NCBI GenBank assembly: GCA_048886185.1
Contig: JBHLKY010000029.1
Coordinates: 11,881 to 43,453 of the forward strand
Source: Candidatus Hermodarchaeota archaeon
GTDB lineage: Archaea > Asgardarchaeota > Heimdallarchaeia > Hodarchaeales > Hodarchaeaceae
Reading direction: 5' to 3'
DNA: 31,573 nucleotides
Each line of letters begins with the position of its first letter. Within the stretch, counting starts at the first letter, position 1. The position numbers and the translations under genes were made by a program. The notes under the pieces were generated by a model that saw only the letters and a list, made by a program, of their open reading frames with translations, was not told where the DNA came from and made no database searches. Of the stretch, positions 19,232 to 25,170 are shown in pieces.

Positions 19232-19249
19232 TCTGTTAGAATATGGAAA

Positions 19250-19384
19250 TCCCTTGGCCGTGATTTGAACACGGGACAACCCGGTATCTGCTAAAGCCCA
19301 ACTAACAACCTTTTCATCGAATCATCCAAGGTGTGGCACCTGCGCCTACAGCCGGGGGCTCTTGCCAGGCTGAGCTACCAAGGG
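19250..19384 (-). tRNA. tRNA-Tyr(GUA) with a 60-nt intron at position 37/38
   Basis: Minus strand: CCCTTGG TA GCTC AGCCTGGCAA GAGC C CCCGG CT GTA G [intron] A CCGGG TTGTC CCGTG TTCAAAT CACGG CCAAGGG A. All four stems pair. C1-G72, A73 and the short variable arm are the archaeal/eukaryotic Tyr type. CCA is not encoded. Mature length is 75 nt. Confidence 0.97.
19286..19345 (-). ncRNA. tRNA-Tyr intron; predicted single-hairpin H/ACA guide RNA targeting U35 of pre-tRNA-Tyr
   Basis: GCGCAGGUGCCACACCUUGGAUGAUUCGAUGAAAAGGUUGUUAGUUGGGCUUUAGCAGAU. Hand-folded: K-loop, 7-bp upper stem, 5+8-nt guide arms complementary to the pre-tRNA around U35, and AGA box 15 nt from the pocket. The intron call is near certain; the guide function is predicted. 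Confidence 0.7.
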
Positions 19385-19403
19385 AGATAATTAATAGGCT
19401 TCC

Positions 19404-21644: not shown

Positions 21645-22910
21645 ATGAAAAATGTGACTACTAATATTAAAGTTCTCCTTTTCTGGGATAAGACATCCTG
21701 GTATGCACTTGGAGCACTAACTCCTAGTTTGCAGAAAGCTAATCTTTCATGCGAGATTATCCGAGGTGATGTTGTTACTTCTATTCATAAACAGATAGCC
21801 CAAGGGTACCATGTGATTTATGGTGAATCCGCAAGAATAACAACCTTAGATTCATTAGAGAATCGATTAAAGATGATTAATGAACAGATATCGTCACCAC
21901 AGTTAACCATCGTGATTGGAGGTTCATATGCTTCGGGAAATCCACAAAGAATCTTAAAAATGGGAGCAGATTACGTAGTAATAGGTGAGGGAGAGGTAAC
22001 TTTTCCGGAATTAATCCACACATTAGCTAGTAAAGAAGCTGGAGACATAAGTTTTTTTGTGCTACCCGGAATTGCTTTTCTTAATAAAAACGGAGATTTT
22101 GTACAGACTCCCTCACGAGCTCGGATAGATTTAAATGAACATTGTCCGTACTTAGATAGTGAAATTTTTCCATTACATCCTCCTATTGAACTAATGCGGG
22201 GGTGTGCTTTTCGTTGTCGCTTTTGTCAGGTACCTTATATGTATGGTAATCCACGTTTTCGATCCATTGAAACTATTACTAAGATTGTAGAACATTATGT
22301 TCGACATTTTACACCTCTGAAAAGAAGTGTTGATATTCGCTTCATTGCCCCAAACTCACTTGGATATATGGAGAAGAAACGGGGTCAACCAAACTATGAT
22401 GCTTTGAATGACCTTTTAAAAAGACTCTCACGGTTTGAGATCCGAATTTTTTTTGGTACTTTTCCTTCCGAGATTCGTCCTGAGTACATCACAGAGGAAA
22501 TTGTTTTTTTATTTGACAAGGTGAATAATCGCCAAATTTCTGTTGGGTTTCAGAGCGGATCTGATCGTGTTCTCTCTGCAATGCGTCGAGGGCATTCTGT
22601 TGCTGATGGGCTTCGAGCAAATGATCTGATGGTTTCTCAAGGAATCACTCCTATTTTCGATTTTATTCTAGGAGTTCCTTCTGAAACAACAGTTGAGCAG
22701 TGGCAGACTCTTTCTTTAATTCGAGAGCTAGGAAGAAATGCTCGTGTTCGACTTCACTATTTCATGCCTCTCCCAGGAACACCTTGGGAAAACAGTCAAC
22801 CAGCACTGTTAGATTCAGAGATTCAGTCGGAAATTGGACGGTTAGCTAAAGCAAAAATTATTATGGGAGCATTTGCTAAACAATTCCAAATAGCATTCCA
22901 AGACAAATAG
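21645..22910 (+). CDS. B12-binding domain/radical SAM protein (MJ1487-like archaeal family)
   Basis: IVIGGSYASG and DYVVIGEGE (B12-binding domain); IELMRGCAFRCRFCQ; RFIAPN, FFGTFPSEIRPE, GFQSGSDRVL..MRRGH and FMPLPGTP. Confidence 0.88.
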   Translation: MKNVTTNIKVLLFWDKTSWYALGALTPSLQKANLSCEIIRGDVVTSIHKQIAQGYHVIYGESARITTLDSLENRLKMINEQISSPQLTIVIGGSYASGNPQRILKMGADYVVIGEGEVTFPELIHTLASKEAGDISFFVLPGIAFLNKNGDFVQTPSRARIDLNEHCPYLDSEIFPLHPPIELMRGCAFRCRFCQVPYMYGNPRFRSIETITKIVEHYVRHFTPLKRSVDIRFIAPNSLGYMEKKRGQPNYDALNDLLKRLSRFEIRIFFGTFPSEIRPEYITEEIVFLFDKVNNRQISVGFQSGSDRVLSAMRRGHSVADGLRANDLMVSQGITPIFDFILGVPSETTVEQWQTLSLIRELGRNARVRLHYFMPLPGTPWENSQPALLDSEIQSEIGRLAKAKIIMGAFAKQFQIAFQDK

Positions 22911-23048
22911 AGATTGTTATTCAATTCAATTACCAACAAATATTTATCTCTGAGTAATGTTTTATCATATAAAAGGTAAAGAAAAGTTTATTATATTGAG
23001 GTAATTGGTGTATGATGTAATTCTTTAAACTGCGAGGTGTTACTTAAG

Positions 23049-23351
23049 TTGGAAGTTCGAAATGTATTTGTTGCATTCCTTACAATCCTTTTTTTAATTC
23101 TGATTCTCGGTTCAATTGCAGCTCTGATTTTCCACGTTATCAATTATGATGTTCCCATTTACACCACCCATCAAGGTAGTTCTGGTGGTGAAATAGTTGA
23201 AGAAGTAGTACTGAGTGAGCTGTATATCGGTAAAAGGGATACAAATGTATTTCTTGAAATCCTAGCATTATTTATCTTATCTGGGTGTATATTCTATGCT
23301 GGTTTGTTAAATTACCTCAAAAAACCAACTCTAAAAAGGAGAATGGAATAA
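23049..23351 (+). CDS. Hypothetical membrane protein (2 TM)
   Basis: TTG at 23049 follows GAGGTG (the ORF track starts at the GTG inside this RBS). Two hydrophobic helices. Confidence 0.65.
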   Translation: MEVRNVFVAFLTILFLILILGSIAALIFHVINYDVPIYTTHQGSSGGEIVEEVVLSELYIGKRDTNVFLEILALFILSGCIFYAGLLNYLKKPTLKRRME

Positions 23352-23463
23352 CATGATGGATTTCTTGAGGCACATCTTTATATGTTCCTTTCCTTTTATT
23401 GGATTCCTAATATTTTTCTCACTTAGAATTAAACTTAGATAAAAATCTTTGAGGACAATAATC

Positions 23464-25170
23464 TTGGAGTTCAAAGCTTTTTGTAAAATCATGGAGGAAA
23501 TTGATTCAACTAGTAAGAAGAATGAAAAAGTTACGATATTTGCGTCATTTTTGACAACTTTATCAAACTCTGAATTACCTCTTATCTGCTACTATGCTAC
23601 AGGTCAACCATTTTCAAAAATTTCCGAAAAAAAAATCCAATTTGGCTGGAGTTCTTTCATGAGTGTCGTCCACCAGTTGACTAGCAGAACACCTGACGAT
23701 CTTCGTAGATTTTATAGAAGAAACTCTGATTTTGGGAGTTTGATCGAGTACGCGATTCTACACCGAAAACCTCAATCTCAGCCTCTAGAAAGTTATTTTA
23801 GTCAAACTGAACTAAAAACTCTCACAATCCAAGGCATCAATAAGCACCTCACAAAAATAGCATCATACCAAGGAAAAGGTTCACAAAAAGCCAAAAAAAC
23901 CCAATTATTACATCTACTAAGAAACGCTTCTCCTTTAGAAGCCAAATATATTGCTCGAATTATTACATCTGATACACGAACAGGTTTCCGAGGAGGATTG
24001 TTATTAGATGCAATAGCCCAAGCCTTTGAACGAGTAAACGAACAGGTACGATATGCATATATGGTTCTTAGTGATTTTGGGGATGTTGCTCAAGCAGCTA
24101 AAGATCAATCAATTGATTTATTATCACTTAAACCACAAATATTTCACCCTTTGCGCTCTATGTTAGCATCCAAGATTGAGTCAGCCGAGGAAGCACTTAG
24201 CAGTTATAATAGCTTAGTTTGTGAACCTAAAATCGATGGTTTCCGTGCACAGCTCCATATCAGTAAGAGGGAATGCAAACTCTACTCAAGAAACCTAGAA
24301 GAGGTTACGCATGCGTTCCCCGAAATTATTGATTCCCTCACGATGGATCTTAAAATGCAATTAGCACCTAGTATACTTGATGGGGAAGTTGTCGCTCTCG
24401 TTGATGGCAAACCTGTCTTTTTTCAGGATCTTTCAACTCGTATTCTGCGAAAAAAAGACATCCAAATTTCTGTTGAATCGACTCCCTGTTATTATTATAT
24501 ATTTGACATCCTTGTATACCAAGGAACTTCTCTTTTAAATATACCATTAATGAAAAGAAAGGAAATCCTTGATACCTCTTTTTCTGACTTCAAGAATATC
24601 CGTAAAATAAAATTTCAAACTTTAACAGATATTGAACAAATTCAAATCCAGCTTCAAGAGGCGATTCAAAATGGTTCAGAAGGCTTAATGCTTAAGGATC
24701 CCACATCGGAGTACCAAGCAGGAAAACGGGGTAAAGGATGGTTGAAACTTAAAGTAACATTACCTACGCTCGATCTAGCCATTGTGGGAGCTGAATGGGG
24801 GCATGGAAGGCGAACAGGATGGTTGTCTAATTATCATCTAGCTGCGCGGGGAGCAAATGAATTTCAGGTAATCGGTAAAACTTTCAAAGGATTAACAGAT
24901 CTGGAATTCACACAATTAACTGAACAATTAAAGGATTTGGAACTATCAAAAGAACCATATGGAATAAGTGTACAACCAAAAATCGTGGTAGAAGTCGAAT
25001 TTGACAATATTCAAGAATCATCAAAATATCCTTCAGGGGTGGCATTAAGGTTTGCTAGAATAAAGAGAATACGGAAGGATAAAGATATCGATGAAGTAGA
25101 TAGTATTGAAACAGTCAAACAGCTGTTTCAAGATCAGTTACAACGCCAAAAACGTGCTGGTATAGTGTGA
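23464..25170 (+). CDS. lig: ATP-dependent DNA ligase, archaeal type
   Basis: Motif I EPKIDG, III LDGEVV, IIIa IFDILV, IV EGLMLK, V WLKLK and VI LRFARIKRIRKDK, plus an N-terminal DNA-binding domain. The likely start is TTG 23464 after GAGGA. Confidence 0.97.
   Translation: MEFKAFCKIMEEIDSTSKKNEKVTIFASFLTTLSNSELPLICYYATGQPFSKISEKKIQFGWSSFMSVVHQLTSRTPDDLRRFYRRNSDFGSLIEYAILHRKPQSQPLESYFSQTELKTLTIQGINKHLTKIASYQGKGSQKAKKTQLLHLLRNASPLEAKYIARIITSDTRTGFRGGLLLDAIAQAFERVNEQVRYAYMVLSDFGDVAQAAKDQSIDLLSLKPQIFHPLRSMLASKIESAEEALSSYNSLVCEPKIDGFRAQLHISKRECKLYSRNLEEVTHAFPEIIDSLTMDLKMQLAPSILDGEVVALVDGKPVFFQDLSTRILRKKDIQISVESTPCYYYIFDILVYQGTSLLNIPLMKRKEILDTSFSDFKNIRKIKFQTLTDIEQIQIQLQEAIQNGSEGLMLKDPTSEYQAGKRGKGWLKLKVTLPTLDLAIVGAEWGHGRRTGWLSNYHLAARGANEFQVIGKTFKGLTDLEFTQLTEQLKDLELSKEPYGISVQPKIVVEVEFDNIQESSKYPSGVALRFARIKRIRKDKDIDEVDSIETVKQLFQDQLQRQKRAGIV

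Follow-up and report, generated by a model that had tools for sequence, protein, structure and literature searches.

A conserved K-loop module in the intron of an Asgard tRNA-Tyr gene is a candidate for presenting U35 of its own precursor for pseudouridylation

The intron of euryarchaeal pre-tRNA-Trp is a box C/D guide for the 2'-O-methylation of its own tRNA, and it acts before the precursor refolds into the substrate for splicing. The formation of pseudouridine 35 (Psi35) in pre-tRNA-Tyr of Sulfolobales and Aeropyrum is guided by stand-alone H/ACA small RNAs (sRNAs), namely Sso1, Sto1, Sac1, Mse2, Ape7 and sR115 (PMC2651775, PMC11077068). These trans guides were reconstituted in vitro (PMC2651775), and in S. 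islandicus deletion of the guide abolishes the modification (PMC11077068). In eukaryotic pre-tRNA-Tyr, Psi35 formation by Pus7 depends on the intron (as cited in PMC2651775), and the intron of tRNA-Tyr is the one most widely retained in eukaryotes (PMC12168002). Here, we analyzed the tRNA-Tyr(GUA) gene encoded in a stretch of 31,573 nucleotides (the window) from Candidatus Hermodarchaeota archaeon (Hodarchaeales, Asgard; assembly GCA_048886185.1, contig JBHLKY010000029.1). Its intron, numbered with i1 = 19345, had been proposed in a sequence-only reading to be an H/ACA guide directed at U35 of the pre-tRNA that contains it. Comparison with orthologous introns suggests a cis-acting H/ACA-like module of the Pyrobaculum type, which would present U35 to L7Ae, Nop10 and Cbf5 and would alternate with the bulge-helix-bulge fold; we consider this reading, on balance, probable.

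As proposed here, the module shares with the Sso1/sR115-type guides the target U35, a junction in which U35-A36 stay unpaired, the restriction to unspliced pre-tRNA and a hairpin with a kink-turn (K-turn) or K-loop. The target is bipartite in both cases and consists of the anticodon stem-loop 5' of U35 and of G37 together with intron bases 3' of A36. The sequence-only reading had named the Sulfolobales trans guides, and the literature bears this out (PMC2651775, with confirmation in vivo in PMC11077068). The Sso1/sR115-type guides differ in that they are encoded by separate genes, act in trans, have a lower stem and carry the ACA box at a distance of 14 nt from the target, whereas the module of the window lies within the intron of its substrate, folds in cis and has neither a conserved lower stem nor a conserved box. 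The H/ACA-like sRNAs sR203-sR210 of Pyrobaculum (PMC4652768) are similar to the module in having a K-turn or K-loop hairpin, a stem of 10 layers, single-stranded guide flanks, no lower stem and an ANA box that is degenerate or absent; however, they are free trans sRNAs with mostly rRNA targets and are neither intronic nor joined to their target. The common features with the C/D intron of tRNA-Trp are a putative L7Ae-binding guide in a tRNA intron that is aimed at its own pre-tRNA, and guide and splicing folds that exclude each other. The tRNA-Trp system uses Nop5-fibrillarin, directs methylation and contains C/D and C'/D' boxes with guides of 10-12 nt. In the eukaryotic Pus7 system Psi35 is likewise made before splicing and the intron is required, but the enzyme is protein-only and the intron has no K-turn hairpin. 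In the literature searched, which covered the trans guides, the H/ACA-like class and the C/D intron, we found no report of a tRNA-Tyr intron with a K-turn or an H/ACA-type module; a preprint from 2026 that deals with tRNA introns of Asgard archaea makes no mention of Tyr, K-turn or pseudouridine. Machinery and target are known; the proposed cis, intron-borne and box-less arrangement is new. To our knowledge, RNA-guided pseudouridylation is known only with free trans guide RNAs.

A BLAST search with the pre-tRNA identified full-length orthologues including the intron in 17 of the 21 genomes of the genus (72-97% identity) and, beyond the genus, exon matches. An alignment of 20 anticodon arms and introns was used to build a covariance model that contains the anticodon stem and the upper stem only. 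This model matches 57 of the 83 genomes of the class, with one match per genome that is always located in tRNA-Tyr. In a sample of 151 genomes from across the phylum it matches 35, some of them from families that belong to other classes (12/25 genomes in family f14, 2/19 in f17, and also f15, f22 and f27); the lack of a match in an incomplete genome is no proof of absence. Two near-complete Asgard genomes from other families, which have no model match, encode a tRNA-Tyr that is apparently intronless at 37/38, with CUGUAGA followed directly by the 3' stem and the T arm (G093:C1:523749-523775 and G086:C12:345-371). The comparative set consists of 68 distinct tRNA-Tyr introns from Asgard genomes, to which all counts out of 68 refer.

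Every pairing given in the sequence-only reading is literally present in the window, that is, the K-loop, the upper stem, an 8-pair 3' arm and a 5-pair 5' arm. The upper stem is formed by A12-U41, C13-G40, A14-U38, C15-G37, C16-G36, U17-A35 and U18-A34 with U39 bulged, and the K-loop by the sheared pairs G20.A32 and A21.G31, plus G19.A33, with the loop UGAUUCGAU. For the comparison the stem was chosen solely by how well it pairs, and its length was allowed to be 9, 10 or 11 layers. Counted from the junction up to the second sheared G.A pair, the stem has 10 layers in 54/68 introns and 9 layers with one bulged base in 14/68; that of the window has 10 layers in addition to the bulged U39. Five of the seven pairs change on both sides. 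Stem cells are paired in 92.9% compared to 77.8% after shuffling (0/500), and the covariation score is 0.401 compared to 0.152 (0/500), dropping to at most 0.10 once the partner strand is displaced by 1-3 columns. The upper stem (P2) and the G37-C pair are also predicted de novo by RNAalifold. The upper stem that had been drawn by hand is thus backed by covariation across the set.

The same comparison supports the assignment of the K-loop as an L7Ae-type motif. The 5' dinucleotide of the K-motif is GA in 62/68 and AA in 6/68 introns, NNU precedes the 3' GA in 66/68, and U.U, U.A or G.A usually forms the layer beneath the G.A pairs. About a dozen sequences from other families have, in place of the loop of 5-9 nt, a C-stem of 3-4 bp and a 3-nt bulge, which gives, judging from the sequence, a textbook K-turn. 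These C-stems covary (GGU/ACC, GCCA/UGGC, GGUU/AGCC and GGG/CCC), and the bulges are AAU, UAU or AUU. L7Ae binds a K-turn with A at position 2n (PMC3985660), and both the interchange of K-loop and K-turn and the tolerated A at 2n are what would be expected of an L7Ae site. A genome scan for strict K-loop hairpins yielded 147 hits compared to 91 in the reversed-sequence control; among the 147 the hairpin of the tRNA-Tyr intron is the only one that falls in a called tRNA gene, and the scan gave no convincing set with lower stem and ACA that could serve as an H/ACA sRNA comparison. A box C/D reading of the hairpin was rejected, because the sequence 5' of the GA is self-paired within P2 and is not a guide, and because terminal C/D boxes are absent.

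On its 5' side the upper stem is preceded by C in 67/68 introns (free-length parse), and the pair of this C with G37 is invariant (74/74). The next pair, between i1 and the base preceding that C, is A-U in 34, U-A in 20, G-C in 10, C-G in 2 and G.U in 1 case, and is unpaired in 1. Among the 50 distinct flanks this pair is present in 49 compared to 21.3 expected by permutation (0/5000), and the third pair is present in 38 compared to 26.1 expected (0/5000). The resulting mini-hairpin has 2-4 bp, exon base G37 as its first base and a loop of 3-8 nt with variable sequence; examples are GACaaatGTC, GATgaaaATC, GCCGttaTGGC, GGCGcaaaCGCC, GGTacacACC and GTCaataGAC. The 5' splice site falls within this mini-hairpin, which takes the role of the 5' guide duplex. 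The five pairs between i7-11 and G37 with i1-4, which had been proposed as a 5' pocket arm, do exist in the window but are better read as such a hairpin in cis. The fifth of them, C4-G7, would leave a loop of 2 nt and is therefore possible only between two molecules, so that the arm in cis is a hairpin of 4 bp. Removing the loop limit gains no pair in 41/50 distinct flanks, and a cis hairpin is thus the simplest reading of the 5' arm.

On the 3' side the three bases following P2 are CAG in 52, UAG in 10 and CAA in 3 of the 68 introns. The 3' arm pairs only in the register that begins at G34, with a mean run of 5.38 compared to at most 1.6 for other registers or starts. Positions 31-34 are paired in 63-67 of the introns, but only 53 are paired at position 30 and 39 at position 29. 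The 3' arm of the window pairs over eight positions with C27..G34 (5 Watson-Crick and 3 G.U pairs), exactly as had been claimed, but only the first 4-6 pairs of this duplex are conserved, and the extension to eight is specific to the clade of the window. Arm bases 5-8 and stem positions 27-30 did not covary significantly (permutation 676/5000 and 1015/5000), showing that the 8-bp arm is not a conserved feature; the covariation between guide arm and anticodon arm that had been suggested as a check did not materialize at these positions. In archaeal H/ACA pockets the 3' guide strand usually comprises 5-6 nt (PMC4652768). With 1-2 exceptions among the 68 introns, U35-A36 lie between the end of the arm helix at G34 and the beginning of the mini-hairpin at G37. 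The prediction that the arms leave exactly U35-A36 unpaired therefore holds for the orthologues, and so does the prediction that only unspliced pre-tRNA fits, since the target takes in intron bases. This junction geometry is that of an H/ACA guide on its substrate, which argues for reading it as a Psi35 pocket.

The basal stem and the ANA box, by contrast, had been part of the original proposal and are not conserved. In the window G55, C56, A57 and G58, which had been assigned to them, pair with U35, G34, U33 and C32 in the canonical splicing helix, and the AGA located 15 nt from the stem is part of the bulge-helix-bulge motif. Both elements can nevertheless be drawn in the window, and so can the fifth pair of the 5' arm that would form only in trans. 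This would fit an excised, perhaps circularised intron which acts in trans as a free H/ACA sRNA composed of a single hairpin, a basal stem and an ANA box. Two related genomes contain exon-less copies of the module, which point in the same direction, and the C/D guide in the tRNA-Trp intron is a precedent for an intron active in cis and in trans. We consider such a trans-acting intron quite improbable, since its basal stem and ANA box are unconserved and overlap the splicing helix in the window. Moreover, the 41 flanks mentioned above gain nothing without the loop limit, the spacer always has at least 3 nt and is variable and similar to a hairpin loop, and a hairpin closing in cis normally beats an intermolecular duplex of 3-5 bp. 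Some trans activity on top of the cis fold is nevertheless conceivable.

One of the two module copies is located in genome G014 (contig C279, L004:428-503, minus strand), about 1 kb from an intact tRNA-Tyr gene. It contains, in this order, CUCAGUUGUAG, a mini-hairpin, a K-loop hairpin, UAGUUGGGG and then AAUAAUAUUUUU; the acceptor and D arms are missing upstream, and so is a 3' exon. The segment of this copy that resembles positions 27-34 still forms 8/8 pairs with the arm through changes on one side, and a U.G change preserves P2. The copy may have arisen recently by partial duplication or may serve as a stand-alone guide. The other copy is located in genome G008 (contig C52, L008:1502-1600) and consists of a full tRNA-Tyr 5' exon and an intron module of the window type; where the 3' exon would be expected, unrelated AT-rich DNA follows. 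Its upstream promoter-like sequence is the same as that of the window gene, and the opposite strand encodes, at a distance of 2.4 kb, an intact tRNA-Tyr gene with another intron subtype (L025). The G008 copy could represent a pseudogene, a guide gene or part of a split gene.

The anticodon arm and the intron also form a bulge-helix-bulge structure at 37/38. Its central helix in the window has 4 bp (C32-G58, U33-A57, G34-C56 and U35.G55), and the bulges are A36-G37|G1 and A59-U60|A38, the latter comprising 3 nt and containing the 3' splice site. Below the 5' bulge no helix is evident. All four pairs of the central helix are present in 41/68 introns and three of the four in 24/68, and the pair C32:G(-3) is found in 59/68. 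Long introns contain two separate complements to the anticodon loop, YAGY beside the hairpin and GYRG near the 3' end, and in these lineages only the distal complement serves the splicing motif. In the shortest introns one segment, YAGCCGAN, serves both registers. As judged from their pairings the guide-like fold and the splicing fold cannot exist together, because G31-G34 are needed by both, because U35 is left free by the first but paired in the second, and because the 5' splice site is enclosed in the mini-hairpin in the first fold and must sit in a bulge in the second.

When folded as single sequences, neither the pre-tRNA nor the intron did better than shuffled sequences (z = -1.45 and +0.24, respectively). 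A search of Rfam with the pre-tRNA-Tyr, at gathering cut-offs and at E up to 10, returned no family, and even the tRNA family was not matched because of the intron. The support for the module, as far as the sequences tell, comes from the comparison between genomes and not from folding energy. Both null results would agree with a chance resemblance, in which the intron needs its bulge-helix-bulge only and the remainder is neutral. This is scarcely credible in view of the conservation with covariation found across the phylum and of the two separate anticodon-loop complements kept in long-intron lineages, where splicing requires only the distal one. A shuffling check, which had been named as a possible refutation, points the same way: with the hairpin fixed and the flanks shuffled, an 8+5 match was obtained in 5e-6 of 200,000 trials. 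Chance is contradicted by the comparative data, and on these sequences we regard it as excluded.

We propose that the intron carries two modules, which would make mutually exclusive use of the anticodon loop. In the first module, an L7Ae-type K-loop would cap the hairpin, the C preceding the hairpin would pair with G37 and close a short hairpin with the first intron bases, and the YAGY segment following it would pair with G34-G31, often extended to G30 and C29. The three-way junction formed in this way would free only U35 and A36, located 10 stacked layers below the sheared G.A pairs, and L7Ae-Nop10-Cbf5 would set U35 in the active site, resulting in Psi35. The pre-tRNA would present its own U35, and neither a separate guide RNA nor a lower stem nor an ACA box would be needed. 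The second module, the bulge-helix-bulge, would be composed of the anticodon stem and of C32-U35 paired with intron positions -3 to -6. It would form afterwards, with the first module melting before, and the intron would then be excised.

Among the hallmarks of H/ACA guides the intron has the bipartite pairing (4-8 bp on the 3' side from G34 and 2-4 bp on the 5' side from G37), the K-motif and the 10-layer stem, and it lacks the lower stem and the ACA box. Ten stacked layers divide productive from non-productive guides in Pyrococcus, and in the H/ACA-like guides of Pyrobaculum a stacked bulge can complete the count of 10 (PMC4652768). In the Haloferax/Methanocaldococcus systems the ACA is dispensable for a typical unpaired UN, and pairing on the 3' side outweighs that on the 5' side (PMC7075261). 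Together with the Pyrobaculum guides without lower stem, these data suggest that a missing ACA and a short 5' duplex would be tolerated. The genome encodes a complete Cbf5 with DKCLD, TruB_N, TruB_C_2 and PUA domains, a Nop10 and two proteins of the L7Ae family.

Several observations weigh against the proposed cis-acting Psi35 module. Among the 68 introns there is no conserved pairing between the 5' and 3' intron ends, i.e., no lower stem of 7-9 bp, and no ANA or ACA box at a fixed distance; no peak was seen, since an ANA occurs at 14-15 nt in 13/68 introns and an ACA in no more than 1. For the PUA domain of Cbf5 an anchor is not obvious, and the 5' duplex comprises only 2-4 bp. Target bases 30-37 are invariant, so that the 3' arm is backed by conservation and not by covariation, and the sequences were gathered by a model that already held P2 and the consensus flanks. 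The energies of the two folds are about equal (medians of -14.5 and -13.2 kcal/mol for the 68 sequences), a point that is not decisive. We know of no precedent for a guide that is covalently joined to its substrate. A gene for Gar1 gave no Pfam match in six frames, in a search that also missed one of four archaeal controls. Finally, aPus7/TruD with its catalytic Asp is encoded in all six intron-bearing lineages checked.

The latter finding also concerns the question whether aPus7/TruD is absent or degenerate in the genome of the window, which had been suggested as a check: the gene is present with the catalytic Asp and is not clearly dead. It is located at C3:120227-121074 (L111:1471-2366) and contains an N-masked stretch after the catalytic GLKDA motif. 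Orthologues of about 400 amino acids from the same genus read GLKDAAAETYQR, and the motif of the genus is GLKD-AA, in which Ala-Ala replaces the basic pair after the Asp; the lysine of motif IIIa is kept. Among the lineages checked the basic pair is lost only in this genus, where Ala-Ala resembles the Ala/Thr-Asn/Cys found after the Asp in aPus7 of Sulfolobales. The other intron-bearing lineages have KK, KM or HR at this site, and RN or KR occurs in two lineages whose tRNA-Tyr is apparently intronless. A link between the module and a degenerate aPus7 was rejected, since the residues after the Asp show no clean correlation. TruD Pfam scores are 427 and 380 bits in the two apparently intronless genomes (G093 and G086), about 240-350 bits summed in three other, intron-bearing genomes, and lower in the N-masked copy of the window genome.

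With a protein enzyme available, the K-loop hairpin and the three-way junction might instead be an L7Ae-bound structural device that does not recruit Cbf5. It could act as a chaperone or timer keeping the anticodon loop and the 5' splice site non-spliceable until another event, or as a scaffold flipping out U35-A36 for aPus7, as the eukaryotic intron does for Pus7. The aPus7 from P. abyssi modifies U35 in intron-containing tRNA-Tyr and requires A36, which is unpaired here; H/ACA RNPs, unlike aPus7, tolerate A36G (PMC2651775). The retention of the catalytic Asp in six of six lineages with mostly conserved basic residues and the lack of both ACA box and lower stem are consistent with such a device, and the exclusivity of module and splicing fold suits a timing switch. 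However, it leaves unexplained why the stem remains constant at 10 layers although stem sequences, bulge positions and loop types change, and why pairing stops at G34 and restarts at G37. In addition, we know of no stand-alone pseudouridine synthase that uses L7Ae, and we regard a purely structural device as rather unlikely.

If the cis-acting Psi35 module is real, it would represent a new use of the Cbf5/L7Ae machinery, in cis and without lower stem or ACA box, and the H/ACA counterpart of the C/D intron in tRNA-Trp. It would provide a concrete function for a tRNA intron in those archaea that are most closely related to eukaryotes, and would bear on the questions why eukaryotes everywhere keep the tRNA-Tyr intron and why Psi35 requires it. 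A wider interpretation, which we see as possible but doubtful, is that this is the first modification system with guide and substrate in a single molecule, and that the ancestral Asgard tRNA-Tyr intron was a self-guiding Psi35 module, explaining both retention of and dependence on the intron in eukaryotes. The presence of the module in Hodarchaeales and other Asgard classes would then explain the most persistent eukaryotic tRNA intron, and also the intron dependence of eukaryotic Psi35 even though the protein-only Pus7 now does the chemistry.

The coordinates of the features are listed in Table 1. The intron boundaries given in the sequence-only reading (i1 = 19345, i60 = 19286) are correct according to the sequence and to ARAGORN after intron removal.

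Table 1. Features of the tRNA-Tyr locus; positions are those of the window.
Feature	Position	Strand	Basis or remark
tRNA-Tyr(GUA) gene	19250..19384	minus	sequence; ARAGORN after intron removal; orthologues
5' exon, C1..G37	19384..19346	minus	
Intron, 60 nt at 37/38, i1..i60	19345..19286	minus	
3' exon, A38..A73	19285..19250	minus	
5' part of target, C27..G34	19349..19356	minus	conserved duplex G34, U33, C32, G31, often G30 and C29
U35 (19348) and A36 (19347), the putative 'Psi-N' position	19347..19348	minus	sole unpaired junction bases
Mini-hairpin, G37-C11, G1-C10, C2-G9, G3.U8, loop i4-i7	19335..19346	minus	
Upper stem P2 and K-loop	19305..19334	minus	i12-i41
P2, 5' strand i12-i21	19334..19325	minus	
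Loop i22-i30	19324..19316	minus	
P2, 3' strand i31-i41	19315..19305	minus	
Putative 3' guide arm, i42-i49 UAGUUGGG	19297..19304	minus	conserved core YAGY
3'-side splicing motif, i55-i58 GCAG, with bulge A59, U60, A38	19285..19291	minus	

The tRNA has the acceptor stem CCCUUGG/CCAAGGG including the C1-G72 pair, a D arm, a T arm and the anticodon arm CCCGG-CUGUAG...A-CCGGG, which is split between G37 and A38 by the intron. With the 60 bases taken out, ARAGORN detects a regular tRNA-Tyr(GUA). In default mode it made no call on the intron-bearing gene, and with introns allowed (19249-19385, minus strand) it reported a tRNA-Asn(GUU) with a 43-nt intron. This miscall arises because UUGGG in the 3' arm of the intron is taken for the 3' strand of the anticodon stem. 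The tRNA-Tyr of these genomes may thus be mislabelled or missed in automatic annotation. A 'tRNA-Trp' reported by ARAGORN at C8:183321 was rejected as a false call within coding-looking sequence.

The genes encoded near the tRNA-Tyr gene (21645-25170 and downstream) code for a B12-binding radical SAM protein, an ATP-dependent DNA ligase and an N6/N4 DNA methyltransferase. A radical SAM protein identical to this one is on record in the NCBI assembly GCA_048886985.1, and orthologous tRNA-Tyr genes are located beside the same ligase gene in two related chromosomes. The public sequencing runs listed as carrying this DNA are from sediment metagenome DNA, and no RNA run is among them. Orthologous tRNA-Tyr genes of the same genus and class contain one or two extra introns at non-canonical sites, located in the D loop (L009, L010 and L012) or in the T loop or arm (L013, L014, L025 and L018). 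The constant intron among these multi-intron genes is the one at 37/38 with the K-loop module.

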